A stretch of 64,000 nt of DNA from Candidatus Liptonbacteria bacterium (GTDB lineage Bacteria; Patescibacteriota; Minisyncoccia; UBA6257; 2-01-FULL-56-20). Below are positions 4,037 through 61,213 of this stretch, one piece after another. How positions within the stretch are numbered: the stretch's first letter is position 1; the number at the start of each line of letters is the position of its first letter. Under the pieces are notes generated by a model, which saw only the letters and a list, made by a program, of their open reading frames with translations, made no database searches and was not told the origin of the DNA. The translations under genes and the position numbers were made by a program. Where the stretch lies: assembly GCA_016186635.1 (NCBI GenBank), contig JACPLI010000014.1:804-64803 (forward strand), given 5' to 3'.

Positions 4037-6610
4037 CTAAATCACCACCACGCCAGCGACTCTATCGCCGGAGTTGAGGTTCATAATCCGCACGCCCTGC
4101 GCGGAGCGGCCCGTCTGGCGGACGCTTTTGAGCTCCGTGCGGATGACCTGCCCCTTTGCCGAGAGCGCGAGGAGTTCCGTCTCCTCGCCGAGGACGATGC
4201 CCGCAACCACCTTTCCCGTCTTCTCCGTCACCTTCGCCGTGCGAATCCCGGAGCCGCCGCGGTGCTGGGTTTTGTATTCCTTGAGCGGCGTCCGCTTGCC
4301 GAACCCCTTTTCCATCACCGCGAGGAGCTCCGCCGTGTCGCTCTTCTTCACCACGTCGAACCCCGCAACCGCGTCGCCGTGGCGAAGCCGGATGGCGCGC
4401 ACGCCCGCGGCGCCGCGCCCCATGGGCCTCGCCTGCGACTCCGCAAAGCGGATGGACTGGCCCTTCTCCGTCACGAGCACCACTTGGTCATCGCCCTTCG
4501 AGAGCCGGACCCACTTCAGCATGTCGCCTTTTTTTCCGCCGGAGGCGGATCCGGAGGTCCCTTTCCCGCCAGAGGCGGGTCCGCCTCGGGCGGAGGCGGA
4601 GAGCTTCATCCCGATAATCCCCGTGCGCCGGATATTTTCAAAGTCCTTCAAAGCGGTTTTCTTTATCATGCCGTTTTTGGTCACCATCACGAGATAGCGA
4701 TGAGCGATGAGTGATGAGTGATGAGTCTCCGATGCCTTGTTTCTTGCCCCTTGCTCGCCCCGTGGCGAAGCTGTACGGGGTTCCTTGTTACTCGATGGCA
4801 CATTGACGATCGCGCTTATGTTCTCGTCTGCGGGAATCTCAAGGAAATTGTGAATCGCTTTCCCCTTCGCGGTGCGGCTCGCGGCGGGAATCTCATACGC
4901 GCGCGTTTCGAATACTCTCCCGCGGCCGGTGAAGAAGAGTATCCGGTCGTGCGTGTTCGCGTGGAAGAAGTGCGAGAGGAAATCCTCCTCGGCGACATCA
5001 GACCCAATAAGCCCCTTGCCGCCACGCCGCTGGGCTTTGAAGGTGTCGGGCGGGAGGCGCTTCACATACCCCGACGCGGAGAAGGTAATAATTGCCTCTT
5101 CCTCGGGCACGAGGTCCTCGTCGGTCATCTCCTTCAAGGCATGCGCGACCACGTGCGTCCGGCGCGCCTCGCCATACTTCGCCTTGAGTTCCATGAGCTC
5201 CTTTTTCACCACCTCAAGCATCCGCGTGGGACTCTTCAAAATGAGCGTGAGTTCCTTGATGAGCGTGCGTTTTTCTTTAAGCTCGGCTTCGATTTTCTGC
5301 CGCTCCAATGCCGCGAGCGTCTGGAGCTTCATTTCCAAAATCGCGGCTGCCTGCGCCTCCGAGAGCGTGAAGTGCTTCATCAAGTTCGCCCTCGCGTCCT
5401 CGCGGTCCTTCGATTTCTTGATGGTGGCAATCACTTTGTCTATCGCATCAAGCGCCTTTGCGAGCCCCTCCAAAATATGCGCCCGCTCCTCCGCCCGCTT
5501 CAAGTCAAACTGCGTGCGGCGCTTCACCACCTCCCGCCGGTGCGCGACGTACGCGAGGAGCATCTCCTTCAAAGAGAAGAGTTCCGGCTGGATGCCGTCC
5601 CGCAAGGCAATCATGTTGAAATGGAAATCCTTCTGGAGGTCGGAGTGCTGGTAGAGCTGGTTTAAGATTTTCTGCGGCGCGGCATCGGACTTTAGTTCCA
5701 CCACGATGCGGAGCCCCTCGCGGTCGGACTCGTCGCGAAGGTCGCGGATGCCCTCGATTCTCTTCTCCTGCACAAGTTCCGCGATGTGCTTCACGAGCTC
5801 GGACTTGTTCACCTGGTAGGGAATCTCCGTAATCACGATGTCGAACCCCGCGCGCGTACTCTCTCCCTTCTTTCGCTCCACAATCTCCGCCTTCGCCCGG
5901 GTCGTGACCGCCCCCCGTCCCGTCGCGTATGCCGCCTTCACTGCCGCGCGGTCGTAAATCACGCCGCCCGTGGGAAAATCCGGCCCCTTCACATATTCGA
6001 GCAAATCCTCCGCCGCGGCGTTCGGCTTTTCGATAAGGAGCAGGGTTGCATCCACCACCTCCACCAAGTTGTGCGGCGGGATTGAGGTTGCCATCCCCAC
6101 CGCAATGCCCAAGGTGCCGTTCACGAGGAGGTTCGGAACCTTCGCAGGAAGCACCTTCGGCTCATCGCGGGTCGCATCGTAGTTCGGCTGCCAGTCCACC
6201 GTGTCTTTCTCGATATCAAACAGCATCTCCTCCGCGACTTTCGAGAGGCGCGCCTCCGTGTACCGCATCGCGGCGGGAGAATCCCCGTCCTGTGAACCAA
6301 AATTACCCTGGCCCCACACAAGGGGGTATCGCATGGAGAAGTCCTGCGCCATCCGCGCCAGCGTGTCGTAAATCGCCACGTCGCCGTGCGGGTGGTACTT
6401 CGCCATCGTCTCGCCCACCACGTTTGCCGACTTCCTGAATTTCGCGAGATGCGTGAGCCCTATGGACCACATGGTCCACAGCACCCTCCGGTGCACCGGC
6501 TTCAGCCCGTCGCGCACGTCCGGCAGGGCGCGCGCGACAATCACTGACATCGCGTAGTCGAGGTAGGATTCCTTTAACTCACTGGTGATTTCCCGTTTTT
6601 CGATATTCAT
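4037..6610 (-). CDS. gyrA: DNA gyrase subunit A
   Basis: 857 aa; N-terminal EITSELKESYLDYAMSVIVARALPDVRDGLKPVHRRVLW and catalytic-Tyr region AAMRYTEARL are GyrA hallmarks; C-terminal beta-pinwheel repeats. Confidence 0.95.
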   Translation of the reverse strand: MNIEKREITSELKESYLDYAMSVIVARALPDVRDGLKPVHRRVLWTMWSIGLTHLAKFRKSANVVGETMAKYHPHGDVAIYDTLARMAQDFSMRYPLVWGQGNFGSQDGDSPAAMRYTEARLSKVAEEMLFDIEKDTVDWQPNYDATRDEPKVLPAKVPNLLVNGTLGIAVGMATSIPPHNLVEVVDATLLLIEKPNAAAEDLLEYVKGPDFPTGGVIYDRAAVKAAYATGRGAVTTRAKAEIVERKKGESTRAGFDIVITEIPYQVNKSELVKHIAELVQEKRIEGIRDLRDESDREGLRIVVELKSDAAPQKILNQLYQHSDLQKDFHFNMIALRDGIQPELFSLKEMLLAYVAHRREVVKRRTQFDLKRAEERAHILEGLAKALDAIDKVIATIKKSKDREDARANLMKHFTLSEAQAAAILEMKLQTLAALERQKIEAELKEKRTLIKELTLILKSPTRMLEVVKKELMELKAKYGEARRTHVVAHALKEMTDEDLVPEEEAIITFSASGYVKRLPPDTFKAQRRGGKGLIGSDVAEEDFLSHFFHANTHDRILFFTGRGRVFETRAYEIPAASRTAKGKAIHNFLEIPADENISAIVNVPSSNKEPRTASPRGEQGARNKASETHHSSLIAHRYLVMVTKNGMIKKTALKDFENIRRTGIIGMKLSASARGGPASGGKGTSGSASGGKKGDMLKWVRLSKGDDQVVLVTEKGQSIRFAESQARPMGRGAAGVRAIRLRHGDAVAGFDVVKKSDTAELLAVMEKGFGKRTPLKEYKTQHRGGSGIRTAKVTEKTGKVVAGIVLGEETELLALSAKGQVIRTELKSVRQTGRSAQGVRIMNLNSGDRVAGVVVI
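4531..4600. repeat. GC-rich hairpin element inside gyrA (family CCGCCnnaGGCGGaTCC / TCCGCCTCGGGCGGA)
   Basis: ccgccggaggcggatcc ... cgccagaggcgggtccgcctcgggcggaggcgga; same motifs intergenic at 7629 and 33391; here translated as SASARGGPASGGKGTSGSASGGKKG. Confidence 0.55.
4697..4727. repeat. heptamer tandem array (GATGAGY)x4 in frame within gyrA
   Basis: gcgatgagcgatgagtgatgagtgatgagtc; minus-strand reading gives ETHHSSLIAHRY inside GyrA. Confidence 0.8.
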
Positions 6611-6644
6611 AGTGGATGAGTGATGAGTGATGAGTGATGAGTGA
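6611..6644. repeat. heptamer tandem array (TGATGAG)x4 abutting gyrA start codon
   Basis: agtggatgagtgatgagtgatgagtgatgagtga directly 5' of gyrA ATG (6610-6608, minus). Confidence 0.8.
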
Positions 6645-6684
6645 AATTTGCCCGCTCACCACTTGCCACTCCTCACTATTGTTA

Positions 6685-6993
6685 CTATTTCATCGGTTTC
6701 ACAATATATTCCCTGGACCCTTTCAGTAGTTCGCCAATTCGTCCGAAGGCGTCCGCCACATTATCGTAGAGCACGGCGCTCCCGCGCCGCATTGTCGCCC
6801 AAAACGACGCTCCCGTTTCCTCTCCGGCGCCCGCGGTGCGCGCGCCTCCCGCATCCGCAAGGAGGTTGTTGAAGTACACAAGCCACACGTAAAGCACCAC
6901 CACCATTGCCACCGCGGAACCCGCGATGAGCACGCGCCGCTTCGTGGTGGCGTCAGCTCCTTGGAGCCGTTTCAAAAAACCTTCGGTGTTCAT
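6685..6993 (-). CDS. hypothetical small membrane protein
   Basis: 102 aa, one TM helix VLIAGSAVAMVVVLYVWLVYF; same strand upstream of gyrA; preceded by (GGAACAA)n array at 6996-7025. Confidence 0.4.
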   Translation of the reverse strand: MNTEGFLKRLQGADATTKRRVLIAGSAVAMVVVLYVWLVYFNNLLADAGGARTAGAGEETGASFWATMRRGSAVLYDNVADAFGRIGELLKGSREYIVKPMK

Positions 6994-7020
6994 TGATTTT
7001 TGTTCCTTGTTCCTTGTCCC

Positions 7021-7593
7021 TCATGCGGACTTGAGCCCAATGGTTTTTGTCCCCTGCATCGCAACGAGGTCTTTCTTTCGGAAGACAAATTTCTCCTCGG
7101 CTCCGCCGCTTTCACCCATCTCCTTGAGGAATGACGCAGGAGATTTCTCATACGCGGGGATGACCACCTTCGGCTCGAGCTGGCGCACCACCTTCTCCGC
7201 GGCTTCGTCGCTTAAATATTTCGCGCCGAGCCGAAGGAACACCACGTCCGGCTCGTTCAGTTTCTCCAGCGCGTCCGCCTCAAGGCCTTTCGCGAGAGGA
7301 CCTAAAAACGCGAACTTCACATCCTCCCACCGCACGAGATACGCGGTGTGCGCCCGCCCGGCTCCCACCGGAAGCGCAATACCGCGCACTTCTATCCCCT
7401 TGGACTCGTATTCGCCGGGGAACGCGACCTCCGTCTGCGGACCCGGTTCCGCGTCGGGAGCAGGAATTTCTGCGTCGGTTTTCAAGACCACATCGCCCTT
7501 CAAGCGGTTTGATGGGGGGTCAACGAGCACCGAAACATCGCCGCTCTGGATGCGGAACGAACCCTCGCCGAGATAGGTGATAACCACGAGCAT
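7021..7593 (-). CDS. MBL-fold-like protein with degenerate metal-binding motif
   Basis: From internal ATG 7593: MLVVITYLGEGSFRIQSGDVSVLVDP resembles N-terminus of UPF0173/MBL hydrolases but the HxHxDH His ligands are replaced; ORF-track N-terminal 27 aa are translation of a hairpin repeat. Confidence 0.4.
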   Translation of the reverse strand: MLVVITYLGEGSFRIQSGDVSVLVDPPSNRLKGDVVLKTDAEIPAPDAEPGPQTEVAFPGEYESKGIEVRGIALPVGAGRAHTAYLVRWEDVKFAFLGPLAKGLEADALEKLNEPDVVFLRLGAKYLSDEAAEKVVRQLEPKVVIPAYEKSPASFLKEMGESGGAEEKFVFRKKDLVAMQGTKTIGLKSA

Positions 7594-7657: not shown

Positions 7658-7766
7658 CAATTATCAATTTTCAAAAAATGCGTCGTAGAGAACCGATTGA
7701 AAATTGAACATTGATACTTGAAAATTCAGAAACGCGGGCTTGCGTTTCTGGGAAATCCCCGTATAA

Positions 7767-9488: not shown

Positions 9489-9490
9489 CA

Positions 9491-13769: not shown

Positions 13770-14642
13770 TTATCGGGTCAAGCCCGATAATGACAATTGG
13801 GGGGTGTTATTCACCAAGCTCTTCTCATTCAACTTGTAGAAATTTTCGAAAAGCTTCGCGACAAGGATAGGTCCCGTGCCGCCAGGGGTGGGGGTGTAGG
13901 AAATAGTAGCGAGCGATGAGTGGCGAGTGGCGAGACTGCTGGAATCGAAGTCACCGAGAAGCTTGCCGCCCACGGAGTCGTACCCAAAATCAACCACAAG
14001 CGCGCCTTCTTTAAGCGTCTCTGCATTGAAAAGCCCTGCCTTGCCAGCGCCGGAGATTACCACATCACAGTTCTTGAGGATGGCAAAGTCCGCGCCGCGG
14101 CCCAACACATACAATTCACTCACCTTCCGCATGAGCCAGACCGCAATCGGCTTCCCGATGAGCATCCCCGCACCGATGACCGCCACTCGCTTACCCTTGA
14201 GGTCAACCTTCGCGCGCCGCAGGACCTCCTCCACGGTCGCGACCGCAGGGTGCAATACCTTCGCGCGGTTGTTGTAGTGGGCGCCCAGCGTCCGCTCGCT
14301 CAAGCAATCGGGGTCCTTCTCCGGCGGAATCGCATTCACGATGTAGGTGGCGTTCAGCGGCTCGGGGAGCGGCAGCTGCACAATCACGCCGCCGCAGGTT
14401 TTCCCCGCCGCGAGTTTTCCCACTTTCTCGCGGAGCGCATCATTCCCTAGGGCAGGAGCAAGTTTATAAATACGATAATCAATTCCCAGCCCTTTCGCGG
14501 TGTCCTGCTTTAGTTTTTGAAAACTTTCGGATGCGGGGTCATCGCCAATTAAAACTCCGGCGAAGAATTTCTTCGGCTTTGGCTTTTCTTTGAGGCGCCC
14601 GAGAAGCTCGGCGGCGATTTTTTTCCCGTCAATCATTGGCAT
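13770..14642 (-). CDS. folD: bifunctional methylenetetrahydrofolate dehydrogenase/cyclohydrolase
   Basis: MPMIDGKKIAAEL..., GVIVQLPLP, ...TPTPGGTGPIL FolD motifs; start placed at ATG 14642 (track start is a TTG within a heptamer array); C-terminal tail reads through hairpin repeats. Confidence 0.88.
   Translation of the reverse strand: MPMIDGKKIAAELLGRLKEKPKPKKFFAGVLIGDDPASESFQKLKQDTAKGLGIDYRIYKLAPALGNDALREKVGKLAAGKTCGGVIVQLPLPEPLNATYIVNAIPPEKDPDCLSERTLGAHYNNRAKVLHPAVATVEEVLRRAKVDLKGKRVAVIGAGMLIGKPIAVWLMRKVSELYVLGRGADFAILKNCDVVISGAGKAGLFNAETLKEGALVVDFGYDSVGGKLLGDFDSSSLATRHSSLATISYTPTPGGTGPILVAKLFENFYKLNEKSLVNNTPQLSLSGLTR
13917..13948. repeat. heptamer array (GAGTGGC/GATGAGT) in frame within folD
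   Basis: gtagcgagcgatgagtggcgagtggcgagactg encodes insert SSSLATRHSSLATIS just before the conserved TPxPGGxGP motif. Confidence 0.75.
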
Positions 14643-14644
14643 AG

Positions 14645-14770
14645 CAAGTGGCAAGTGGCAAGTAGTATGTAGCGAGTAGTATGGAGCAGGGAATAAGAAA
14701 AGTAAACGCGAATAAGCAAAAAAACCGCTTCGCTTCGCTATTCGCTACTTGCTACCCGCTACTTGCTCAC
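14645..14770. repeat. inverted pair of heptamer arrays (GCAAGTG)n ... (CTACTTGC)n forming a long hairpin
   Basis: gcaagtggcaagtggcaagtagtatgtagcgagtag ... ctacttgctacccgctacttgctcac; between glyA stop and folD start. Confidence 0.6.
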
Positions 14771-16086
14771 GCATCTATCCCCGGCACCGGGAACTTCGTC
14801 GCAAGCGCTTTCACGCGTTCGCGGATTTTCTTCACTGTTTCATGCCCCTCAAGCGTTTTCTCAAAATCTCTCACCGCCTGCGCGCGCTTCTCTTTCTCAT
14901 CCGGCAACGGAGTTGTCGCGAATGCCTTCACCACTTCCGCAATCCATGTGCCGATGACTACCATTTCCTTTTCCTTCATACCGCGCGTGGTGAGTGCTGG
15001 TGTTCCCAAGCGGATGCCCGAAGGATAAAACGGCACCGAAGGGTCGTTCGGCACCGTCGTGAAGTTCGTGTTGATTTCGGCGGCTTCAAGCGCCTTCGCG
15101 ACAAAGACCCCGCGCCCCGGCCCGAAGGGGCGTAGGTCAATGAGCATGAGGTGGGTTTCGGTCCCACCCGAGACAAGTTTCAACCCCTCTTTAATAAGTG
15201 TCGCGGCAAGAATCGAGGCATTTTTCACAATTTGCGCGGCATAGTCCTTAAATTCCGGCCGCAAGGCCTCCCCCAACGTCACGGCAATCCCCGCAATCGT
15301 GTGCTCGTGAGGCCCACCCTGCATGCCCGGGAACACCGCTTTGTCTATTTTCTCCCGCAGTTCTTCCTTGCAGAAAATCAGCGCCCCCCGCGGCCCGCGC
15401 AACGTCTTGTGCGTGGTAGTCGTCACCACATCCGTTGAGGGGAAAGGCGAGGGGTGTGCGCCGCCGATGACGAGCCCCGAGATATGCGAAATATCCGCCA
15501 TCGAAATTGCGCCGATGGAGCGCGCAATCAAAGCCATTTTTTCAAAATCCACCTTCCGCGGGTACGCGGTAAATCCGGAGAGGATGAGCTGCGGCTTCGT
15601 TTTCTCCGCGAGCTTTTGAATCGCGTCGTAGTCGAGCACTTCCTTCTCCGCATCGAGCGGATAAAACACGAAGTTGAAAAGCTTCCCCGAGGCGTTCACT
15701 GGCGAGCCGTGCGTGAGGTGCCCGCCCTGGTCGAGCCGCAAGGACATGATGGTGTCTCCGGGTTTCAATAACCCGAGGTACACCGCAAGGTTCGCGGGGC
15801 TCCCCGAATACGGCTGGACGTTTACATGATACCCTTCGGCATTGAACGCTTTCAAGGCGCGCGCCTGCGCAAGACGCTCCACCTCGTCAATGTGGACATT
15901 CCCGCTGTAGTAGCGGCGCCCCGGGTACCCCTCGGCATACTTGTCGTTCAAAATGCTCCCCGCCGCCTCAAGCGCGGCGGCAGAGGCGTAGTTCTCCGAA
16001 GGAATCATTTCGAGTCCCTCTTTCTGCCGTTTTTTCTCGCGCTCGATGATGGCGAAAACTTCGGGGTCTTGGGATGCGAGATTCAT
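14767..16086 (-). CDS. glyA: serine hydroxymethyltransferase
   Basis: LEMIPSENY, PLP-site THKTLRGPRG, GMQGGPHEHTIAG; start at ATG 16086 (MNLASQDPEV); upstream track extension is translation of AGTAATT repeats. Confidence 0.95.
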   Translation of the reverse strand: MNLASQDPEVFAIIEREKKRQKEGLEMIPSENYASAAALEAAGSILNDKYAEGYPGRRYYSGNVHIDEVERLAQARALKAFNAEGYHVNVQPYSGSPANLAVYLGLLKPGDTIMSLRLDQGGHLTHGSPVNASGKLFNFVFYPLDAEKEVLDYDAIQKLAEKTKPQLILSGFTAYPRKVDFEKMALIARSIGAISMADISHISGLVIGGAHPSPFPSTDVVTTTTHKTLRGPRGALIFCKEELREKIDKAVFPGMQGGPHEHTIAGIAVTLGEALRPEFKDYAAQIVKNASILAATLIKEGLKLVSGGTETHLMLIDLRPFGPGRGVFVAKALEAAEINTNFTTVPNDPSVPFYPSGIRLGTPALTTRGMKEKEMVVIGTWIAEVVKAFATTPLPDEKEKRAQAVRDFEKTLEGHETVKKIRERVKALATKFPVPGIDA

Positions 16087-16160
16087 AGTAATTGAGTAAT
16101 TAGTAATCAAGTAATTGGGGACGAATTACATATTTACCCAATTACATAATTACAGACGCG
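16087..16160. repeat. heptamer arrays (AGTAATT)x4 and (AATTACA)x3 abutting glyA start codon
   Basis: agtaattgagtaattagtaatcaagtaattgggg...gaattacatatttacccaattacataattacag. Confidence 0.75.
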
Positions 16161-18152: not shown

Positions 18153-18190
18153 AGTAGCTGTAGCTAATGGCTATTGGCTAATCGCTATCT
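18153..18190. repeat. 7-nt-periodic array (GCTAATG/GCTATTG/GCTAATC/GCTATCT) abutting ftsH start codon
   Basis: tagtagctgtagctaatggctattggctaatcgctatct directly 5' of ATG 18191. Confidence 0.6.
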
Positions 18191-23256: not shown

Positions 23257-23258
23257 TG

Positions 23259-26317: not shown

Positions 26318-26318
26318 A

Positions 26319-28705: not shown

Positions 28706-28800
28706 CCCGACGCTTCGGTCGGGGCTCCGACTCCCGCCGCAACGGGACGCCGGAGCTAATAACTTATGACTTATGACAAATGACCTTTCTCACTCTCACT
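28706..28800. repeat. hairpin ccccgacgcttcggtcgggg plus heptamer arrays (CTTATGA, CTCACTC, CTCTTAC)
   Basis: between hppA start and nusA stop; nusA C-terminal tail [14 protein letters not shown] is encoded by the arrays. Confidence 0.5.
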
Positions 28801-34522: not shown

Positions 34523-36388
34523 ATGGACGCTCCTCTGAACCCGGAACAGCAGAAAGCCGCTTCCGCCCCGCACGGACCCCTCCTCATTGTTGCAGGGGCA
34601 GGCACCGGCAAGACGAAGACGCTCACGAGCCGGCTCCTCCGCCTCATAGAGGAAGGAGTTGTCCCGTCTTGCATCTGTGCGCTCACGTTTACGAACAAGG
34701 CGGCGAAGGAAATGGCGAACCGCGTCGCGACGATGACGAATGACCATAACGATGACGGCGGTCATAGTCATCGTCATAGTCATCGTATGAACGACCTGCC
34801 CTTCATCGGCACATTCCACTCGCTCGGGGCAAAAGTTCTCCGCGCTGAAGCGCGTGCAGTGGGGCGAACGCAGGGTTTCACCATCTTCGACGACGGCGAC
34901 TCGCTCTCCGCAATGAAGAAAGTTATGAAAGAACTTGACTTCCGCACGGGCAAACCCGCACAGGCGCTCCGCTACATTTCGTGGAAAAAAAGCGGGGCGG
35001 GAGAAGGCGTGGATGCCGGCACGCGTGACGACAAAAAGATATTTGAGCGTTACGAGGCATTCCTCGCCCGCGCAAACGCATTCGACTTCGATGACCTCAT
35101 CGCAAAGACAGTTGCGCTCTTCGAGCACAGCCCCGAGACGCTCGCGCGATATCAGAAGCGTTATACGCACATCCTCGTTGACGAATACCAAGACGTGAGC
35201 CCCGCGCAATACACGCTCGTGCGGCTCCTCGCGGGACGGCGCGCCCACGTGAGCGTCGTAGGAGACGACGCGCAGATGATTTACGGGTGGCGCTACGCAA
35301 ATCTCGACACGTTCCTTCACTTTGAGCGCGACTGGCCCGGCGCCCGCGTCGTGCTCCTCGAAGAAAACTACCGCTCTACCGCAATAATCGTCCGCGCCGC
35401 CTCTGCCGTCGCCGCGCAGAATGCGTTCGCCCGCAAAAAAGAACTCTGGACGCGGAATCCCGACGGAGAGCTCCTCACTATTGCCGAAACCGCGGACGAG
35501 GACGATGAAGCGGAGTGGGTGGGCGCGCAAATTGCGCGCACTATGACAGATGACGATCACCATGACGCCGGTTATCGTCATAGTCATGGTCATGGTCACG
35601 CCGGCAACTCCGTTGCCGTGCTCTACCGCACGAACGCCCAGTCGCGCGCGCTCGAGCAGGCGCTCCTCCGCCGCAACATTACGTACAAAATTTATGGAGG
35701 TCTGAAGTTCTACGAACGCCGCGAAATAAAAGACATCGTGGCGGGACTTCGTCTTGCGATAAACCCTCGAGACGAAATGAGCCGCGACCGCTTAGAAAAG
35801 GCCTTCCGGGTACGCGTGTTTGAAAACGTCGTGGCTACACTCACGAAGTGCGGTGGAACTTCCCCGCGCGCAGCAATCGAGAAGTTTCTTGCCGCTACGG
35901 ACTATTTTGAACATCTCGAGCGCGAAACCACGAACGCGGAAGAGCGCCGGGAAAACATCACCGAACTCCTCCGTTTTGCGGAGGGCTTCACCAACCTTGC
36001 TGATTTTCTCGAGCACGTTTCCCTTGTGCAGTCCACCGATGATGTGAACGCGAATTGCCAATTGCCAATTGCCAATTGCCAACCAGTGGTACATCTCTCC
36101 ACCATCCACCTCGCCAAGGGGCTTGAGTTCGACCGGGTGTTCCTCGCGGGATGTGCGGAAGGGCTCCTCCCGCACGCCCGCTCCATAGAAACGGAAGATG
36201 CAACAGAAGAAGAACGGCGGCTTATGTATGTGGGGATGACGCGCGCGCGGAAGAAGCTCTCGATTTCATTCTTCGGGATTCCCTCGAGGTTCCTTGGAGA
36301 AATCCCGGAAGATCTCATGGCGTACGAGAAAACCTCCGGCGCGGCCGATGATGAAAATAGTGAGGGGGCAGCGATTCAACTCAACTAG
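34523..36388 (+). CDS. UvrD/PcrA-family ATP-dependent DNA helicase
   Basis: Walker A GAGTGKT, motifs ILVDEYQD, VGDDAQMIYGWR, TIHLAKGLEFD, VGMTRAR; carries three in-frame heptamer-array inserts. Confidence 0.9.
   Translation: MDAPLNPEQQKAASAPHGPLLIVAGAGTGKTKTLTSRLLRLIEEGVVPSCICALTFTNKAAKEMANRVATMTNDHNDDGGHSHRHSHRMNDLPFIGTFHSLGAKVLRAEARAVGRTQGFTIFDDGDSLSAMKKVMKELDFRTGKPAQALRYISWKKSGAGEGVDAGTRDDKKIFERYEAFLARANAFDFDDLIAKTVALFEHSPETLARYQKRYTHILVDEYQDVSPAQYTLVRLLAGRRAHVSVVGDDAQMIYGWRYANLDTFLHFERDWPGARVVLLEENYRSTAIIVRAASAVAAQNAFARKKELWTRNPDGELLTIAETADEDDEAEWVGAQIARTMTDDDHHDAGYRHSHGHGHAGNSVAVLYRTNAQSRALEQALLRRNITYKIYGGLKFYERREIKDIVAGLRLAINPRDEMSRDRLEKAFRVRVFENVVATLTKCGGTSPRAAIEKFLAATDYFEHLERETTNAEERRENITELLRFAEGFTNLADFLEHVSLVQSTDDVNANCQLPIANCQPVVHLSTIHLAKGLEFDRVFLAGCAEGLLPHARSIETEDATEEERRLMYVGMTRARKKLSISFFGIPSRFLGEIPEDLMAYEKTSGAADDENSEGAAIQLN
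34761..34789. repeat. heptamer array (GTCATAG/TCATCGT)x4 in frame in helicase
   Basis: gtcatagtcatcgtcatagtcatcgtatg encodes GHSHRHSHRM; antisense gives spurious MTMTMT ORF. Confidence 0.8.
35571..35599. repeat. heptamer array in frame in helicase
   Basis: gttatcgtcatagtcatggtcatggtcac encodes YRHSHGHGH. Confidence 0.8.
36053..36075. repeat. heptamer array (AATTGCC)x3 in frame in helicase
   Basis: aattgccaattgccaattgccaa encodes NCQLPIANCQ immediately before conserved TIHLAKGLEFD. Confidence 0.8.
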
Positions 36389-44122: not shown

Positions 44123-45544
44123 ATGAACAACCCAACCGTAATACCCGAAGAAAAAATCTTCCAGCGCTGGGATATGCTCCCCGAGGGACTCCGCGAGGCG
44201 CTTGTCTCTGAAAAATACGGCGATATTCTCTGGAAAACCTGCGCGGCGGAGCATCTCTCCGAGGAAAAAACGGGCGAGGTCGCCCGCATCGCTTCGTGGG
44301 TGTTTCTGGGATTCCTCCACCCCGAGGACATCGCGCGCGAGGTGCAGCTTTCGACCGGCATCCACGCCGAGGTTGCAAACGCGATTGCCGCGGCGCTCCA
44401 CGCGAAGATTTTCGCGCCGCTCCGCGAGACGCTCGAGTCCTCCTACGCCCCTCCGGGAACCACGCCCCGCTACGGCGAGGCGCCTGCGGGGCCCGTCATG
44501 CTTGAGGATATTCGCTCCATGGAAGACCGCGAGGGCGCGCCTGCTTCGCCGGAGCTCCCGCGAGGCGCGCAGGGCGCTTCTCTCTCTCACGGGATGGAAG
44601 CAACGCTCGAGAAGCTCCGCCCCTCCGCCGCAGAAGAGCCATTCTTCAAAGAAACGCCCGTAGCGCTTGAGGCGCTTAAGGAACAAGGAACAAGGAACAA
44701 GGAACAAGGAGAAGCCTTTGAAGTACCACCAGCATTCGAGATGCCGCCTCCCGAAAGAATGAGTGATGCGGGAAGAGTGATAAGTGATGAAGCGACCCGT
44801 CCCTCACCCCTCACCACTCAAAACTCATTCTCGCCACTCGCCACTCAACCCTCGCCACTTGAAACTTCCCCCTTCATCCTCCACGAAGAAGCCCCCGCGC
44901 CTTCGCTCCCGAACGTCGGCGACTTTTCGCTCGACATCAGGCCGGAAGAGTTCGGCCCCTCGGAGCAGGAACTGCAGAAAGCCCCGCAGGCGGACATCGA
45001 GATAGGGGGAGCAACAGAAGGAATAAGGAATAAGGAACAAGGAACAAGCGAGGAAGAAAAGGAATCGAGAATCGTTCACTACGGAGACTTGCGCACGCCG
45101 CTCGAAAGCGTGAGTGGCGAGGGAAAAGTGATGAGTGATGAGGCAACTCTCCTCTCACCCCTCACCCCTCAACACTCATCACTAGATGCAACTCCCGTTC
45201 CAAGCCCGACGTTTGCAGCGTTCAACCTCTCCGACCTTGCAGGGCTGGATGCTCCGCCTCCTCCACCTCCCGCCGCAACCGCGCCCGAGCCGGACGTGCC
45301 CCCGCCTCCGCCCGCCACTCAACCCTCGCCACTCGAAACTTCTCCAAAAAAGCAAGGGTTCTTTGCGCGGCTTTTCGGAAGAAGAGGAAGGGGGACTCTA
45401 GAACCTTCGGATGCCCAAGGTTCGACCTTGGAAGCAACCCCGGAACCCGACCTGCCTCCGCCTCCGCCCGATGAGCCACCCGTGCCGCCTCTACCCCCTG
45501 CTACCGGCGCCGACACGATAAACTTAGATTCTTTCAAGTCCTGA
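44123..45544 (+). CDS. hypothetical protein with folded N-domain and Pro-rich low-complexity tail
   Basis: 473 aa; tail contains AAGGAAC and GTGATGA-type heptamer arrays translated as EQGTRNKEQG, SDEATRPSPLTTQ etc. Confidence 0.45.
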   Translation: MNNPTVIPEEKIFQRWDMLPEGLREALVSEKYGDILWKTCAAEHLSEEKTGEVARIASWVFLGFLHPEDIAREVQLSTGIHAEVANAIAAALHAKIFAPLRETLESSYAPPGTTPRYGEAPAGPVMLEDIRSMEDREGAPASPELPRGAQGASLSHGMEATLEKLRPSAAEEPFFKETPVALEALKEQGTRNKEQGEAFEVPPAFEMPPPERMSDAGRVISDEATRPSPLTTQNSFSPLATQPSPLETSPFILHEEAPAPSLPNVGDFSLDIRPEEFGPSEQELQKAPQADIEIGGATEGIRNKEQGTSEEEKESRIVHYGDLRTPLESVSGEGKVMSDEATLLSPLTPQHSSLDATPVPSPTFAAFNLSDLAGLDAPPPPPPAATAPEPDVPPPPPATQPSPLETSPKKQGFFARLFGRRGRGTLEPSDAQGSTLEATPEPDLPPPPPDEPPVPPLPPATGADTINLDSFKS

Positions 45545-45556
45545 CTCGGAAAACCT

Positions 45557-45602: not shown

Positions 45603-46109
45603 ATGCAATTCCAAGTTCCCCAATTTATCGAGACGGAAGACAAGATTGTGGGGCCTTTCACGCTCAAGCAGTTTATCGCGGTCGGCGCCGCAGTAGGCGT
45701 CTCGCTTGTCCTGTACCTCGTCGTCGTGCCGTGGCTCTGGCTCGTGCTCTCTATTCCCCTCGTCGGCGGCGGGATTGCCTTCGCCTTCGTGAGGGTAGGG
45801 GGGCGCGCGCTCCCTTCGGTCGCGCTCGCGGCGCTCCGCTATCTCTGGAAACCGCAAACGTACGTGTGGCAGCCGGAAGCGCAAGGAACAAGGGACAAGG
45901 AACAAGGAACGAAAACGGAAGAAAAGACGGGCGGGCTTTCGCTTGAGGAAGTGCTCTCGGGACTCTCCCTGCGGCGGACATGGCAGAAGCTCCAAACCGG
46001 CGCGGAGAAGCTCTCGCCGGGGCTCTTCCTCGCTCAGCGCGACCGCTACTCCATCTACCGGAAGCGGAGCGGGGAGAGGAGCGCCGCGAGGAGGATAGAT
46101 TACCGCTAG
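45603..46109 (+). CDS. PrgI/VirB3-like small membrane protein
   Basis: start at ATG 45603; two TM helices FIAVGAAVGVSLVLYLVVVPWLWLVLSIPLVGGGIAFAFV; position directly upstream of VirB4-like ATPase as in Gram-positive-type T4SS. Confidence 0.5.
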   Translation: MQFQVPQFIETEDKIVGPFTLKQFIAVGAAVGVSLVLYLVVVPWLWLVLSIPLVGGGIAFAFVRVGGRALPSVALAALRYLWKPQTYVWQPEAQGTRDKEQGTKTEEKTGGLSLEEVLSGLSLRRTWQKLQTGAEKLSPGLFLAQRDRYSIYRKRSGERSAARRIDYR

Positions 46110-46112
46110 AGG

Positions 46113-46168
46113 ACAAGTGGTGAGTGATGAGTGGTGAGTGGGGAGTGGTTAAGTGGCGAGTGATGAGG
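46113..46168. repeat. heptamer array (GTGGTGA/GTGATGA/GTGGGGA...)x8
   Basis: ggacaagtggtgagtgatgagtggtgagtggggagtggttaagtggcgagtgatgagg. Confidence 0.8.
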
Positions 46169-46582
46169 GAATACAATGCAATGCAAATCAAATCGTATAA
46201 AGAACTTACTGTTTGGAAAAAATCGGTTGTTCTTGTGGAAGAAGTTTACTGTTGCACCGCAAAACTTCCGAAGGAGGAGTTATATGGTCTCGTTATGCAA
46301 GCGCGCCGCGCAGTAGTTTCAATCCCGTCAAGCATCGCCGAAGGTTCGAGAAGGAAAAACGGCATGGAATATCTGCAGTACATAAGGATTGCGGATGGAT
46401 CATCGGCAGAACTTGAGACACAACTCATCATAATAAAACGCCTCTACCCTCACGTAAATGTCGCGAGAGCAGAACAGCTGCTTGATGAAGTGCAACGAAT
46501 GCTGCACGCAATGCGGCGGACTCTCGAATCTAAAATCAGGCTTACCCGAACACCTCCAAGCGAGTACAATGATAAAGAATAG
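46163..46582 (+). CDS. four-helix-bundle protein (23S rRNA intervening-sequence protein family)
   Basis: KSYKELTVWKKSVVLVEEVY...LPKEELYGLVMQARRAVVSIPSSIAEGSRR...ADGSSAELETQL matches PF05635-type proteins; lower-GC islet; start 46163 or 46181. Confidence 0.65.
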   Translation: MREYNAMQIKSYKELTVWKKSVVLVEEVYCCTAKLPKEELYGLVMQARRAVVSIPSSIAEGSRRKNGMEYLQYIRIADGSSAELETQLIIIKRLYPHVNVARAEQLLDEVQRMLHAMRRTLESKIRLTRTPPSEYNDKE

Positions 46583-46652
46583 CCACCACTTCCCTCACCC
46601 CTCACCACTTATCGCTCATCACTTATCACTCGCCACTTATCACTCAAAACTC
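46582..46652. repeat. heptamer array (CCTCACC/ACTTATC/ACTCGCC...)x10 abutting virB4-like start codon
   Basis: ccaccacttccctcacccctcaccacttatcgctcatcacttatcactcgccacttatcactcaaaactc then ATG 46653. Confidence 0.8.
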
Positions 46653-49079: not shown

Positions 49080-49085
49080 AGCCCT

Positions 49086-49153: not shown

Positions 49154-49188
49154 AACAGAAAGAATACATTCGACCCCTGCACACTACC

Positions 49189-49854
49189 ATGGAACCCGAG
49201 CCAAAAATCTCCGTCGTTGAGGCGATATGGATAGGAACCGTATTCGCGCTCATAGACATTGCGGAAGTCGCCATTGTATTCTTCGGGCTCGACGATTTCT
49301 GGATTCTCGACGCGCTCGCGTCAACGATATTTGTGTATCTCGTCCTCAAGACAATCCCGCCGTTCCGCCAGCTCATCACATGGATTGGAGAACTCTTCCC
49401 GTATGTGGGCGCGCTCCCGCTCCTCACCGCAGGATGGCTCTGGACCACGTGGGCAGACTGGCATCCCGAGGGACTCGGCGCGAAGACGCTCGCCGTGGCG
49501 GAAACGGCGGCGTCCGCGGCAAAGGGAGGAGGGGGAGGAAAAGGCGCCGCGGAAGGCGGGGGAGGGGGCACAGCGGGCGCGCCCGCGCAGGCGCCGCAGG
49601 CACGCGCCGCCGAACAAGCCCCAGCCGGCGCGGGAACAACCGCAGAATCCGCTCCGGCATCCGCCGCGCCGGGCGGAGCGCCGGGAGCGCAACCGGTTCC
49701 CGATGAGGCGCTTGGGGTTCAAAAAGAGCCGATGGAAAAGGTACGGGAGCTCATGGAAAAACCGCTCCCGCCGGAAGAACCCGTCTCCTCAACCGAACCG
49801 CCAGCGCCCCCTCCTCCGAAACTTGAGGATGTGCGCCGGAGGGAAATGCTCTAG
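49189..49854 (+). CDS. hypothetical membrane protein with Gly/Ala/Pro-rich tail
   Basis: 221 aa; 3 TM helices; KGGGGGKGAAEGGGGGTAG low complexity; flanked by direct repeats. Confidence 0.45.
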   Translation: MEPEPKISVVEAIWIGTVFALIDIAEVAIVFFGLDDFWILDALASTIFVYLVLKTIPPFRQLITWIGELFPYVGALPLLTAGWLWTTWADWHPEGLGAKTLAVAETAASAAKGGGGGKGAAEGGGGGTAGAPAQAPQARAAEQAPAGAGTTAESAPASAAPGGAPGAQPVPDEALGVQKEPMEKVRELMEKPLPPEEPVSSTEPPAPPPPKLEDVRRREML

Positions 49855-49867
49855 AATGAAGGAGGAT

Positions 49868-50641
49868 ATGAATACCCGCGAATTACAACCTCCTCTTCCT
49901 TGTCATTCCCGCGAAAGCGGGAATCTAGGGGCACTAAGGGAGATCCTGGGTTCCCGCTTCTGCGGGAACGACAGAACGGCTCGCTTTATCGTCTCAGTTG
50001 CATTGCTTATTGTAATCGCAATGCTTCTGCCGCACGCGTACGCGCAAACCGAGCCGCAGGTCATCATCAGCTGGCAGGCGCACACCTATACCCCTCCCGG
50101 CTACGCCGGAAAGGCGCTCTCGACTGGCGGCTCAAAAGTGAGCGCGTCGCTTGATGTGCTCCACGGAGGGAAGCTTGCCGACCTCTCCGGAGAGACCTTC
50201 TACTGGTACCTCAACAACCGCCTCATTTCGCGCGGCAGGGGGCTCACGAGCGTTTCGCTCCGCGCGCCGGAGGAACTGCGCGGCTCATTTTCGCTCCGCG
50301 TCGAAGCCCTTTCTTACCGCGGCGGCGCCCTGCTCCGCGCCGTGAACATCCCCATCGTCCGCCCCGAGGCCGTGCTTGCGGCGCCTTTCCCCGACGCAAA
50401 AGTTTCCTCGCCGCTCTCCCTCCGCGGCATACCCTTTTTCTTCAACGTCACGGACCCCTTGGAGCTCGTCACGCGGTGGACGGTGAACGGCGCGCCCGCG
50501 TCGCAGACAGGCAACCCCACGGAACTCACTGCAACCATCCAAGGCGCCGCCGGCAGCGCGCTCTCCATAGCGCTCTCGTTCCTCAATCCCGCGTTTGATT
50601 TCGAGGCCGCGCAGGCGTCGGCAACATTCACGCTCAAATGA
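49868..50641 (+). CDS. hypothetical secreted protein
   Basis: ATG 49868 (or 49856) after aaggagga; N-terminal 40 aa are translated hairpin repeat, then signal-like FIVSVALLIVIAMLLPHAYA-QTEP; true start uncertain. Confidence 0.4.
   Translation: MNTRELQPPLPCHSRESGNLGALREILGSRFCGNDRTARFIVSVALLIVIAMLLPHAYAQTEPQVIISWQAHTYTPPGYAGKALSTGGSKVSASLDVLHGGKLADLSGETFYWYLNNRLISRGRGLTSVSLRAPEELRGSFSLRVEALSYRGGALLRAVNIPIVRPEAVLAAPFPDAKVSSPLSLRGIPFFFNVTDPLELVTRWTVNGAPASQTGNPTELTATIQGAAGSALSIALSFLNPAFDFEAAQASATFTLK
49903..49968. repeat. ~70-bp double-hairpin element, right copy
   Basis: gtcattcccgcgaaagcgggaatc...ggttcccgcttctgcgggaac. Confidence 0.7.
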
Positions 50642-52988: not shown

Positions 52989-53038
52989 GGAGTAATCGCG
53001 AATAATGCGAATCTGGACTTCAATAACGCGAATTCATT
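52988..53038. repeat. palindromic AATAAYGCRAAT-family element, copy 5
   Basis: gggagtaatcgcgaataatgcgaatctggacttcaataacgcgaattcatt immediately after stop of 51744-52988. Confidence 0.65.
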
Positions 53039-55242: not shown

Positions 55243-56604
55243 ATGAACCTCGAAGAACTGTGGCAATCAACACTCGCTGAGATGGAGGTGCAGCTCTCGC
55301 GGGCAAACTTCTCCACATGGCTGAAGAGCAGCCGGCTTGTCGACAAACAAGACGGCACGCTCTATATCGCGCTTCCCAACAACTTCGCCAAGGAGTGGGT
55401 GGAAAACAAGTATCACAAGAATCTTTTGGGGATTATCCGCAATTTCGATGCATCGGCGCGCAAATTAGAGTTTGTAGTGGCGCCCCATCACCTCGAAGCA
55501 ACTGCTCCCGGCGCCGCCCTCTCGCATCATCCCCAGCGGATGGAAACGAACGTGGGGGGGCTTGACCTTGCAGTTGACCCTGAATCAAACTTAAATCCCC
55601 GCTACTCGCTTTCCTCGTTCGTCGTTGGCCCCTCGAACGAGCTTGCGTTCGCGGCGGCATCGGCGATCGTGAACGATGTCGGGCGAAAATACAACCCGTT
55701 TTTCGTCTACGGCGGCGTGGGATTGGGGAAAACCCACCTCATCCAGGCAATCGGAAACGAGGTGAAGCTTAAGTATAAGAACAGCATCCGCCCCAAGTAC
55801 GTCCCCTCGGAGCGCTTCACGAGCGACGTGGTATGGGCAATCCGCAACAAACGGATGGAAGATATAAAAAAGAAATACCGGGACGTGGACCTTCTTATTA
55901 TTGACGACATTCAGTTTATCGGCGGGAAGGAAAAGACCGAGGAGGAGTTTTTCCACACCTTCAACGCGCTCTACGAAGGCAACAAGCAAATCATCATCTC
56001 GTCGGACCGCCCTCCCCAGTCAATTCCCACGCTTGAGGAAAGGCTGCGGTCGCGGTTTGAGGGAGGGCTTATCGCGGACATCAGCTACCCGGAATATGAA
56101 ATGCGGGTGGCAATCATCAGAAGCAAGCTTCAGGAGGTAAACCAAACCCTTCCCGACGGGGTGGTGGAGCTCGTCGCGAAGCGCGTCAAGAAGAATATCC
56201 GCGAACTCGAGGGAATTTTGAACAAGATTCTCTTCTATCAGGAACGGAAGCAGGCGCAGATTGCGGAGTCGGTTGCGGAAGAGATTATTGAGAAGTCGGC
56301 ACAAAGCCTTTCGCGCCGCGTGACGGATGCCCAAATCCTCAAAGCGGTTGCGGAGTTTTTCAACATCAGCGCGGACGACCTCATCACCCACAACCGCCGG
56401 AAGGAAGTGGTGGAGCCGCGGCAGATTGCGATGTACCTGCTTCGGGATATGCTGGAGTTATCCTATCCGTCGATTGGGGAAAGGCTGGGGAGGGACCACA
56501 CCACGGCGATACACGCCTATGAAAAAATCAACCGTGATGTGAATAAGTATGCACTGCTGAACCAAAAAATTCTCATGATAAAAGACCTTATTCATAAGGG
56601 GTAA
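55243..56604 (+). CDS. dnaA: chromosomal replication initiator protein DnaA
   Basis: 453 aa; Walker A GGVGLGKTHL, Walker B LLIIDDIQF, sensor motifs, C-terminal DNA-binding domain HTTAIHAYEKI. Confidence 0.95.
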   Translation: MNLEELWQSTLAEMEVQLSRANFSTWLKSSRLVDKQDGTLYIALPNNFAKEWVENKYHKNLLGIIRNFDASARKLEFVVAPHHLEATAPGAALSHHPQRMETNVGGLDLAVDPESNLNPRYSLSSFVVGPSNELAFAAASAIVNDVGRKYNPFFVYGGVGLGKTHLIQAIGNEVKLKYKNSIRPKYVPSERFTSDVVWAIRNKRMEDIKKKYRDVDLLIIDDIQFIGGKEKTEEEFFHTFNALYEGNKQIIISSDRPPQSIPTLEERLRSRFEGGLIADISYPEYEMRVAIIRSKLQEVNQTLPDGVVELVAKRVKKNIRELEGILNKILFYQERKQAQIAESVAEEIIEKSAQSLSRRVTDAQILKAVAEFFNISADDLITHNRRKEVVEPRQIAMYLLRDMLELSYPSIGERLGRDHTTAIHAYEKINRDVNKYALLNQKILMIKDLIHKG

Positions 56605-60341: not shown

Positions 60342-60385
60342 AAATAAAACCCCGCCTGTCCATGGACAGGCGGGGGCAATAGCGG

Positions 60386-60568
60386 CTAGTCGTTCAACCC
60401 GAACCGGTCTTCGCGCCGCTCACCCTCCTCTTCCTGTTCCTCGCTTTCGAGAGGGGGGGTTGTTTCCTCTAACTCGTCATCAAATGTCGTGAGACCGTCA
60501 TTCTCGTCGTCCTCGTCGCTCAAGCCGCGCGACAGCTCTATGAGATGGACCCGTTCCATAAGTAGCAC
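60386..60568 (-). CDS. small acidic hypothetical protein
   Basis: 60 aa, Asp/Glu-rich; weak support. Confidence 0.2.
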   Translation of the reverse strand: MLLMERVHLIELSRGLSDEDDENDGLTTFDDELEETTPPLESEEQEEEGERREDRFGLND

Positions 60569-60661
60569 GTTATTCTCGACCTTTCATCAGCACCATCACT
60601 TTGTTATAGAGGAGTCCATTTTGTTGTCAACCCCTCACTGCAACGAGGAGGAAGTGAGGGG

Positions 60662-61141
60662 TCAATCCCGACCGAATGCTTTTATAAAGTGCGCGGCGAG
60701 CGCAGCTGCAAGCGCGTCGCTTACATCGTCAATCACGGAGAGCGAGGGGCATTTCAGGATGATGCGCACCATTTTTGCGACAGAGGATTTGTCCGCGGCG
60801 CCGTATCCGGTAAGGTGAGATTTTATTTCGCCGGGACCGAATTCAGCAATCGGGAGATTGTGCTCCGCGGCGGCGAGGAGGATTACCCCCCGGGCTTGCG
60901 CCACGGCAATGCCCGTTTTCTGGTTCCTCGTGACGAAGAGTTTCTCGACGGCGATGCCCGCGGGGCGGAATGCCCCAATCACCGTATCCATCCCGCGCTT
61001 GATATCTCTGAGGCGCAGATGCGCTTCTTCGTGGCGCGCAGGGAGGAGCCCCGCGCCGACATAGCGGCACTCGTTCCGGGAACTTTCGATAACGCCGTAT
61101 CCGGCGCGATGCGTGCCGGGGTCGATGCCGAGAATTACCAT
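60662..61141 (-). CDS. ruvC: crossover junction endodeoxyribonuclease RuvC
   Basis: MVILGIDPGTHRAGYGVIE... catalytic Asp/Glu motifs of RuvC fold. Confidence 0.9.
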   Translation of the reverse strand: MVILGIDPGTHRAGYGVIESSRNECRYVGAGLLPARHEEAHLRLRDIKRGMDTVIGAFRPAGIAVEKLFVTRNQKTGIAVAQARGVILLAAAEHNLPIAEFGPGEIKSHLTGYGAADKSSVAKMVRIILKCPSLSVIDDVSDALAAALAAHFIKAFGRD

Positions 61142-61213
61142 GACGATGACTGATGACTATGACGTAAGGATGGATTGTGGGCAGTCATTGTCATGTGTCA
61201 TAGTCATCGTACG
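61142..61213. repeat. inverted heptamer arrays (GACGATG/ACTGATG ... GTCATTG/TCATAGT) abutting ruvC start codon
   Basis: gacgatgactgatgactatgacg...cagtcattgtcatgtgtcatagtcatcgtacg between yebC stop and ruvC ATG. Confidence 0.75.

Follow-up and report, generated by a model that had tools for sequence, protein, structure and literature searches.

The stretch analysed here (the window) comprises 64,000 nucleotides of contig JACPLI010000014.1 from a Candidatus Liptonbacteria bacterium, and its subject is a set of short tandem arrays of 7-nt units, two of which bracket a gene for a four-helix-bundle protein between prgI and virB4. The window has a GC content of 57%, and dnaA, dnaN, gyrA, ftsH and clpP are present together with a PrgI/VirB4 cluster. 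A first-pass annotation, made from the sequence alone, had described pervasive 7-periodic arrays in both orientations and many sequence flavours, at gene boundaries and inside genes. Our analysis bears out this description and goes beyond it in two respects: the arrays pair as inverted arms, and one such pair brackets the four-helix-bundle gene.

Among tandem periods, 7 alone is over-represented

Tandem Repeats Finder assigned period 7 to 28 of the 74 rows reported for the window and period 14 to five. Exact tandem arrays, defined by at least 10 consecutive lag-matches, numbered 12 at period 7, compared with 0.0 in 20 dinucleotide shuffles and 0–1 at each of the other periods from 4 to 15. A mismatch-tolerant scan gave 16 arrays of period 7 and 0–4 at the remaining periods of 5–11 and at 13; the 14 arrays that it assigned to period 14 are largely identical with the period-7 arrays. 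A sliding-window scan yielded 15 period-7 arrays versus 0–3 at other periods. Autocorrelation, which had been proposed as a check, is raised at lag 7 (0.2605) and lag 14 (0.2594), with the remaining lags from 4 to 30 (multiples of 3 excluded) at 0.2496–0.2542. Period 7 is the only tandem period in excess, and the heptamer feature is real and statistically extreme. The arrays are indeed not ordinary microsatellites. The statement that unit length is always 7 was slightly overstated: period 7 fits best at 22 of the 27 positions listed in the first-pass annotation, the exceptions being 34761 and 35571 (period 6), 38275 (period 8), 16087 (mixed 7/8) and 61142 (mixed 6/7), and at 56686 periods 6 and 7 tie. 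The unit families ACTCATC, ACTCGCC, AACAAGG and ACCCCTC each occur at 2–3 distant loci of the window, tens of kb apart.

The array region was recovered at 99.9–100% identity and with equal array lengths in Logan contigs from six SRA runs and in the NCBI metagenome-assembled genome (MAG) GCA_016192265.1, all of which represent one population. Exact-protein look-ups for length polymorphism gave 100%-identical arrays in four of five cases and no match in the fifth. Since the arrays are reproduced in independent assemblies, they are no assembly artefact. Short-read contigs typically break within arrays and many terminate exactly inside one, indicating that the arrays are real and fragment short-read assemblies. 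One Logan contig (L089, from SRR12113385) matches the window identically from about 56.15 to 61.78 kb; its divergence over window positions 55400–56150 falls only inside dnaA, at 34–75 mismatches per 250 nt, and the contig represents either a recombinant strain or a chimera.

A four-helix-bundle gene lies between inverted heptamer arms

The product of the gene between prgI and virB4 (Table 1) matches Pfam PF05635 (E 4e-29), NCBIfam TIGR02436 and the Xanthomonas protein XCC0516 (PDB 2GSC, 5 chains; E 2.5e-18). A single nucleotide separates the cassette's 3' arm from the virB4 ATG at 46653, and minimum-energy and centroid folds both pair the two arms in a stem of about 55 bp (z −3.98). For comparison, we collected 80 loci from Parcubacteria/Paceibacterota, members of the candidate phyla radiation (CPR), which were found via VirB4 (at most 79% amino-acid identity) and total 1.31 Mb. 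In most of these relatives the prgI/virB4 junction has no more than a TATAAT box with a very short leader, whereas a gene-less heptamer stem is present there in L013.

In 13 relatives' loci, four-helix-bundle genes occupy various junctions of the cluster, nearly all within inverted periodic arms. Their flank complementarity has a median of 35, compared with 15 for 1033 other genes, and seven of 12 lie above the 99th percentile of those genes (p = 1.3e-7). Loci with a four-helix-bundle gene also carry more heptamer arrays in the rest of their sequence than loci without one (1.36 versus 0.36 per 10 kb, 3.8x, p = 0.002). Other genes with inverted flanks were rejected as heptamer cassettes: those of a Cas2-like gene (L041) and a helix-turn-helix gene (L035) are palindromic operators, and the units beside a PDDEXK_3 gene in L027 are 8–9 nt long.

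The link between four-helix-bundle genes and inverted heptamer flanks is general

A metagenome scan was run with a 7-sequence alignment (a 12-sequence alignment was too diverse) and gave 68 four-helix-bundle genes with usable flanks, which were compared with 182 shifted control positions. A period-7 tract is found in the flanks of 37 of the 68 genes (54%, versus 8% of nearby control positions), and any other period from 4 to 12 in 0–3. An inverted score of at least 30 is reached by 27 of the 68 genes and by none of the 182 controls, and at a score of at least 24 the flanks are inverted in 42 of the 68 cases and direct in five. The arms have a median length of 32 nt; about 20 nt separate the upstream arm from the ATG, and about 15 nt separate the stop codon from the downstream arm. 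The 5' arm is purine-rich in 23 of 27. AGTG, in units such as GAGTGAC and TAGTGGC, is present in 15 of 42 upstream arms, and such units are also the main unit family of the window; for an nAGTGnn unit across unrelated contigs, about 3% would be expected.

A tblastn search of 72,556 plasmids with the window protein returned 20 records, all cyanobacterial but one (Gemmatirosa): nine from Nostoc and four from Calothrix, plus Anabaena, Aulosira, Geminocystis, Pseudanabaena, Stanieria and Picosynechococcus. Among 15 loci inspected (14 cyanobacterial and the Gemmatirosa locus), a period-7 tract lies beside the gene in 14, and the flanks are clearly inverted (score at least 30) in seven. The gene is set between (GGGAGTA)n and (CCCTACT)n on a Nostoc edaphicum plasmid, between (GGGTGTA)n and (TACACCC)n on Calothrix brevissima and N. 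punctiforme plasmids, and between (AGGGAAC)n and (GTTCCCT)n on a plasmid of Nostoc C052. In the literature searched, we found neither a general link of S23p genes (the family of the window protein) with heptamer flanks nor anything general on heptamers in CPR or Parcubacteria.

Three plasmid loci differ in detail. The Gemmatirosa gene (L102) is accompanied by (CTCCTGCC)n, of period 8. In a Pseudanabaena plasmid (L099) and a plasmid of Anabaena sp. 90 (L103), the gene lies between cas6 and cas4 of a CRISPR-cas operon, and the L099 flanks are very long direct arrays, (AAAGCTA)x14 and (AAAGCCA)x10.

Arrays abut start codons and stay in frame inside genes

The array sites of the window are collected in Table 1. 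Arrays abut the ATG of gyrA, folD, glyA, ftsH, virB4, ruvC and the open reading frame (ORF) 6685–6993, and all arrays within coding sequence are in frame and open. The longest inverted repeats of the window include heptamer pairs, and the stems of gyrA, folD, ruvC, the cassette and the second stem in ORF 44123–45544 are predicted to be more stable than shuffled controls (z −3.7 to −4.4). An ATTGAAA array at 7696–7726 resembles the inverted pair beside yebC.

Table 1. Heptamer arrays, predicted stems and the four-helix-bundle gene of the window
Feature	Coordinates	Strand	Remarks
Cassette 5' arm	46112..46171	+	~8 degenerate heptamers (AGTGGTG AGTGATG AGTGGTG AGTGGGG ...); starts 3 nt after prgI stop
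Four-helix-bundle gene (S23p / 23S rRNA intervening-sequence protein, Avd-like)	46163..46582	+	Start uncertain: GTG 46160 or ATG 46163
Cassette 3' arm	46590..46651	+	~8.7 heptamers (CCCTCAC CCCTCAC CACTTAT CGCTCAT CACTTAT CACTCGC ...)
Array inside gyrA	4695..4728	-	In-frame (ACTCATC/GCTCATC), aa 628–638; within a ~27-aa insertion (query 606–640) relative to E. coli GyrA 638–647
Gene-less stem upstream of gyrA	6613..6681	-	5' arm GUGAGGAGUGGCAAGUGGUGAG; 3' arm (ACUCAUC)x4.3, ends 4 nt before ATG; −30.8 kcal/mol, z −4.42 vs shuffles
Array 5' of ORF 6685–6993	6997..7022	-	(GGAACAA)n, 3–6 nt 5' of ATG; unit family common to 44678, 45018 and 45882
Array near folD C-terminus	13918..13934	-	In-frame (CTCGCCA)x2.4
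Stem upstream of folD	14641..14767	-	Arms 14643–14675 and 14735–14767, GCAAGTG / CACTTGC family; 3' arm ends 7 nt before ATG; −47.3 kcal/mol, z −3.71
Stem upstream of glyA	16086..16154	-	7/8-nt AATTACT-type units; abuts ATG; fold z −2.1
Array upstream of ftsH	18153..18187	+	(GCTAATG/GCTATTG), ends 3 nt before ATG; units partly self-complementary
Array in 5' region of H+-pyrophosphatase-like gene 26666–28690	28756..28784	-	(GTCATAA)n
Array inside UvrD/PcrA helicase gene	36049..36084	+	Perfect in-frame (AATTGCC)x4.3
Two inverted arrays in ksgA/rsmA	37799–37830, 37950–38004	+	GAGTGAA type and CACTCGC type; code for two variable methyltransferase loops; Pfam RrnaAD covers aa 5–275 of KsgA
Array cluster in low-complexity part of ORF 44123–45544	44676..45185	+	(AAGGAAC)x4.7 at 44678; (AAGGAAT/C) at 45018
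Two internal stems of ORF 44123–45544	44757–44860, 45112–45185	+	GAGTGAT and CCCTCAC/CTCGCCA arrays; second stem z −4.27
Array in prgI	45882..45912	+	In-frame (CAAGGAA)x4, C-terminal of PrgI domain
Stem taking in ruvC start codon	61140..61207	-	6–7-nt GTCAT-type units; −24.8 kcal/mol, z −4.25
Inverted array pair, divergent yebC / 61886 intergenic region	61748..61849	.	AATTTTC/AATTATC, 31-nt arms, 84% complementary, 40 nt apart

The relatives' loci carry a period-7 excess too, in agreement with the lineage-wide process proposed in the first-pass annotation: in the 1.31 Mb, 71 period-7 arrays were found versus 6 in local shuffles. Period 7 is the commonest, with other tandem periods giving 5–33 arrays (22–28 for periods 6, 9, 12 and 15, and 5–8 for periods 5, 10, 11 and 13). 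The excess is patchy; about 30 of the 80 loci, with GC contents of 33–59%, carry arrays, and close relatives such as L011 have none. Placement was analysed for 82 strict arrays with gene calls made for this purpose, intergenic DNA being 9.3% of the sequence. While 56 of the arrays are in coding sequence, the 26 intergenic ones represent a 3.4-fold intergenic enrichment. The proposed association with start codons is borne out among the latter, 19 of which fall in the 40 nt that precede a start codon and three close to a stop codon (binomial estimate ~9e-4). The ATG-proximal arm is depleted in G in the window, not in AT-rich relatives.

Alignment of KsgA with 26 orthologues revealed that arrays are limited to 4–5 variable loops, which are common to many species. 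From species to species these loops contain different units, and compared with orthologues that have no array, the arrays are often inserted sequence. A partner array of the same unit within 600 nt is present in direct orientation for 25 of the 82 arrays and in inverted orientation for 29, compared with about 10% elsewhere in the locus, indicating that arrays cluster locally in both orientations. The 82 arrays comprise 58 different canonical units. Among close relatives compared for presence/absence boundaries, no pair was similar enough, and the alignments end at arrays.

Some individual loci of relatives are recorded here in their own right. In L047, period 8 replaces period 7, with seven period-8 arrays at 1850–2880 and inverted (TTTAATCC)n arms on the two sides of ksgA (score 87). 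Two distantly related genomes share a 79-nt heptamer stem with CTAATTN arms at 85% identity (L054 8580–8690 and L080 3638–3714); its positions in them are non-orthologous and its orientations opposite. Two heptamer arrays, at L041 1549–1636 and L061 5072–5142, each contain a GC-rich mini-hairpin of about 36 nt that has the array's unit on both sides; the L041 copy falls in the ksgA reading frame. These mini-hairpins are reminiscent of small dispersed repeats reported in Nostoc.

Other repeats and features of the window

Another dispersed repeat family, whose period is about 9–10 nt (AATAATGCGAAT / ATTCGCGATTACTCCT), is located at 2025–2070, 26317–26474, 33335–33445, 45555–45602 and 52990–53035. 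Its 'ATTACTCCT' end adjoins the ATG of clpP and prgI, and 5' of clpP the repeat makes up a 48-nt inverted pair. Palindromic elements arranged in pairs (GTCATTCCCGCG-N3-GCGGGAATC ... GGTTCCCGC-N4-GCGGGAAC) occur at 13722, 49084–49158 and 49901–49973, so placed that gene 49189–49854 has them on both sides; they are comparable to repeats of the ATTCCC-N8-GGGAAT type in other bacteria. Similar palindromic units are translated as 'IPAKAG' within KsgA of L004 and L032. At 2290–2394, ORF 2259–3101 contains a perfect 21-nt x 5 tandem repeat (CGGGCGGTGGAACACCTCCAG), which encodes a 7-aa protein repeat and has no heptamer periodicity inside its unit. An Rfam scan of the window gave seven tRNAs only and no rRNA; ARAGORN called two adjacent tRNA genes at 23145–23329 as tRNA-Ile with anticodon TAT. 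The minimum of the cumulative GC skew, at about 54.7–55.3 kb beside rnpA/yidC (minus) and dnaA/dnaN (plus), points to a likely replication origin there.

Proposed foldback cassettes and gene-less derivatives

Foldback architectures with heptamer arms are present in the window, one around a four-helix-bundle ORF and others gene-less, as are in-frame arrays in tolerant protein loops. As regards their class, the best reading is that the arrays are of the same kind as the short tandemly repeated repetitive (STRR) sequences of cyanobacteria and the GGGAATC repeats of Xanthomonas, here in a CPR genome. We further consider it probable, if only modestly so, that these STRR-like repeats are the arms of foldback cassettes resembling the S23p intervening sequences (IVSs) of 23S rRNA, together with gene-less derivatives of such cassettes, and that they are largely selfish or neutral. 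The organising principle would be that two inverted arrays serve as the arms of a long imperfect stem. One predicted stem (46112–46171 with 46590–46651) encloses the S23p/PF05635 gene inserted between prgI and virB4, gene-less ones stand directly 5' of the gyrA, folD, glyA and ruvC starts, and loops that tolerate insertions in KsgA, GyrA, UvrD, PrgI and ORF 44123–45544 retain single or paired arrays in frame.

The arrays may arise and spread locally through slippage in a 7-nt register or template switching between nearby direct or inverted copies, as proposed for other bacteria, or may depend on a protein for their maintenance, and they would survive where tolerated. The slippage-prone seeding suggested in the first-pass annotation is a possible origin in this sense. 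By analogy, the transcript stems may be substrates of RNase III; cleavage would separate the cassette from the rest of the operon RNA, and the message of the downstream gene would begin with a short leader without a Shine-Dalgarno sequence. Such leaders would fit a genome with many leaderless-looking genes. The elements would be largely selfish or neutral, not switches.

At many starts of the window (for example 7776, 37663, 38707, 53650-, 57846-, 61886), a TATAAT-like box stands 6–12 nt before the ATG without a Shine-Dalgarno sequence, which suggests that leaderless or near-leaderless mRNAs are widespread; most relatives likewise have a TATAAT box and no Shine-Dalgarno sequence at virB4.

Several observations weigh against the cassette reading. 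A strict period-7 threshold is reached by three of 13 CPR four-helix-bundle genes, versus 4.2% of other genes, the low number being due to the degenerate arms in CPR loci. The units of many arrays (AAGGAAC, AATTGCC) belong to families that bear no relation to the local cassette, and same-unit partners within 600 nt are, as the counts above indicate, as often direct as inverted; inverted pairing is not specially favoured outside four-helix-bundle cassettes. Sense and antisense strands fold equally well, giving no RNA-strand signature, and arm mismatches show no G-U bias (39 G-U-compatible versus 36, with 83 transversion-type). With no signature at the RNA level, RNase III processing is therefore argued from analogy. 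In addition, the metagenomic controls lie mostly inside genes and the contigs carry no known taxonomy, near-identical full-length copies proving recent mobility were not found, and the reading gives no reason for a period of exactly 7.

The equal folding of the two strands and the lack of G-U bias would equally suit plain polymerase-slippage microsatellites with a 7-nt bias that accumulate under weak selection, an idea for which PMC4692102 cites Mrazek 2007. The link with four-helix-bundle genes would then be incidental, because arrays and genes would both pile up in permissive DNA. The 58 canonical units among 82 arrays, the local clustering in both orientations, the restriction to variable loops and intergenic DNA, and the heptamer excess known from unrelated bacteria are consistent with this explanation. 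It is nevertheless unlikely to suffice, as it leaves unaccounted for the period-7 flanks of four-helix-bundle genes (54% versus 8% in nearby controls), their orientation (42 inverted versus five direct), the nAGTGnn unit in 15 of 42 arms of unrelated contigs versus about 3% expected, and the same units tens of kb apart in the window. A one-unit change would moreover shift the frame of essential genes, yet 56 of the 82 arrays are coding.

The window's dominant unit family is also that of the cassette arms, dispersed arrays in L041 and L061 share units with local cassette arms, and arrays stand at the 5' ends of genes. These features could be explained if the arrays were candidate binding sites of a pentameric four-helix-bundle protein, each subunit of which would contact one heptamer in the manner of TRAP or Hfq; such a protein would regulate its own cassette and would also act, in trans, through the 5' stems of gyrA, folD, glyA, ruvC and virB4. 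The Xanthomonas homologue is a homopentameric toroid, and arms typically comprise 4–5 units (median 32 nt), the Xanthomonas and Coxiella examples having 4 units or 28 bp. We find this explanation more doubtful still: arms reach 8–14 units, several unrelated unit families coexist within one genome, a regulatory role is not obvious for in-frame coding arrays, and in Coxiella the S23p protein is reportedly unlikely to be produced in vivo.

The fixed period of 7, the patchy occurrence among relatives and the L041 and L061 mini-hairpins with the same unit on both sides would also be expected of 7-bp target-duplication footprints left by a small mobile element through repeated insertion and excision. 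This version of the 'footprint-leaving element' of the first-pass annotation found no direct support and is very improbable, since the window has no transposase and no defined element ends, none of its arrays is interrupted by a mini-hairpin, the cassette flanks are inverted rather than direct, and the units are too diverse for one target preference. Phase-variable contingency loci, switching by frameshift or promoter spacing, are scarcely credible: a 7-nt unit does shift the reading frame and Coxiella strains do differ by one heptamer, but the arrays here hold 2–5 copies only, lie in the housekeeping genes gyrA, ksgA, uvrD and folD and at glyA, ruvC and ftsH rather than at surface or host-interaction genes, and show no repeat-number polymorphism, being of equal length in the six SRA runs and the NCBI MAG of the one population.

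The reading of the arrays as arms of foldback cassettes and their gene-less derivatives can be extended, tentatively, to a broader proposal that we regard as possible rather than probable. The heptamer repeats, cyanobacterial STRR included, and the highly abundant four-helix-bundle/S23p proteins may be two halves of one widespread element, a foldback cassette whose inverted arms would be made, maintained or bound by the pentameric protein. Such an element would hitch-hike in rRNA and operon transcripts in at least four lineages (CPR, Cyanobacteria, Coxiella and Xanthomonas), and its gene-less derivatives would seed arrays genome-wide, even in frame in essential genes.

Comparison with known systems

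The first-pass annotation could assign the arrays to no known element class, a claim that does not hold in view of two documented systems. Over-representation of heptanucleotide simple sequence repeats is documented in Nostoc/Calothrix (STRR) and Xanthomonas (PMC4692102), where Mazel 1990 is cited for the STRR heptamers of Calothrix, Nostoc and Anabaena. As in those genomes, the window has head-to-tail heptamers of about 4 units at many dispersed loci that share a few genome-specific unit families, near ORF ends and sometimes as inverted pairs. The differences concern host, units and placement. The known hosts have large genomes, and the STRR hosts are heterocystous cyanobacteria, whereas the window comes from a CPR genome of less than 1 Mb (Parcubacteria/Paceibacterota). 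STRR and Xanthomonas repeats are strongly non-coding, whereas two thirds of the arrays in the window and its relatives lie in frame inside genes (56 of 82 in predicted coding sequence). Unlike the units of this comparison class, those of the window are not G-quadruplex formers. The canonical STRR units are CCCCAGT, TTGGTCA and CAACAGT, and the window units are not among them; we take the GGGGACT unit of one metagenomic cassette (L115) to equal the STRR1 unit CCCCAGT. No link with S23p genes is mentioned in PMC4692102. An origin of the HIP1 (highly iterated palindrome) type known from cyanobacteria was ruled out, as GCGATCGC is present only twice in the window.

The second system is the IVS of 23S rRNA in Coxiella burnetii and Leptospira, in which terminal inverted repeats pair as a stem and the S23p ORF occupies the loop (PMC4990558). 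In Coxiella, three tandem GACAGAT units (two in some strains) and a degenerate GACAGAA precede the ORF, the terminal stem measures 28 bp, and RNase III cuts at the first repeat (PMC4990558). The window cassette shares the arrangement of inverted heptamer arms around an S23p gene: a homologous PF05635 ORF lies inside an enclosing stem of terminal inverted repeats, with tandem heptamers forming the arm upstream of the ORF. It differs in lying between prgI and virB4 instead of in helix 45 of 23S rRNA, the window having no rRNA, and in its longer stem (about 55 versus 28 bp). RNase III excision of its transcript may be supposed by analogy with Coxiella. In Xanthomonas, a 4-unit GGGAATC repeat overlies the start codon of XCC0516 (Rehm et al., supplementary table), the S23p protein crystallised as PDB 2GSC, which forms a homopentameric toroid.

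Other element classes are more distant. Rickettsia palindromic elements, said to have been described by Ogata et al. in 2000, reportedly have a defined consensus of 100–150 bp and no heptamer periodicity. Like some of the window arrays, they are small palindromic repeats in frame at tolerant surface positions of conserved genes, but the window copies share just the period and a loose unit family. The FB foldback transposons of Drosophila are eukaryotic, far larger and encode a transposase. They resemble the window elements in having long inverted termini of short tandem repeats and an optional central ORF that is absent from many copies, whereas mobility of the window elements was not seen. 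Repetitive extragenic palindromic (REP) sequences and REPINs, with their cognate RAYT transposase gene, are likewise dispersed short palindromic repeats, mostly extragenic and often in inverted doublets, but their sequence is conserved, they show no heptamer periodicity, and they are absent from coding sequence (PMC3116915). The window stems share units alone, with differing loops and unit order, which separates them from REPINs and from miniature inverted-repeat transposable elements.

A bacterial heptamer excess has been noted since 1990 (STRR) and again in 2007 without a mechanism, and PF05635/TIGR02436 proteins rank with the commonest uncharacterised small proteins in several groups, cyanobacteria and CPR included. 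In-frame heptamer repeats are tolerated in GyrA, KsgA and UvrD of a streamlined CPR genome, which bears on annotation, on assembly (contigs break at arrays) and on protein-family alignments. In metagenomes, on cyanobacterial plasmids, in the Coxiella IVS and at the crystallised Xanthomonas homologue, inverted arrays of period 7, and not of other periods, systematically enclose four-helix-bundle genes, and this link with the heptamers joins the two puzzles and makes both testable. STRR-like heptamers and S23p intervening sequences are each known; the generalisation that joins them is potentially important.

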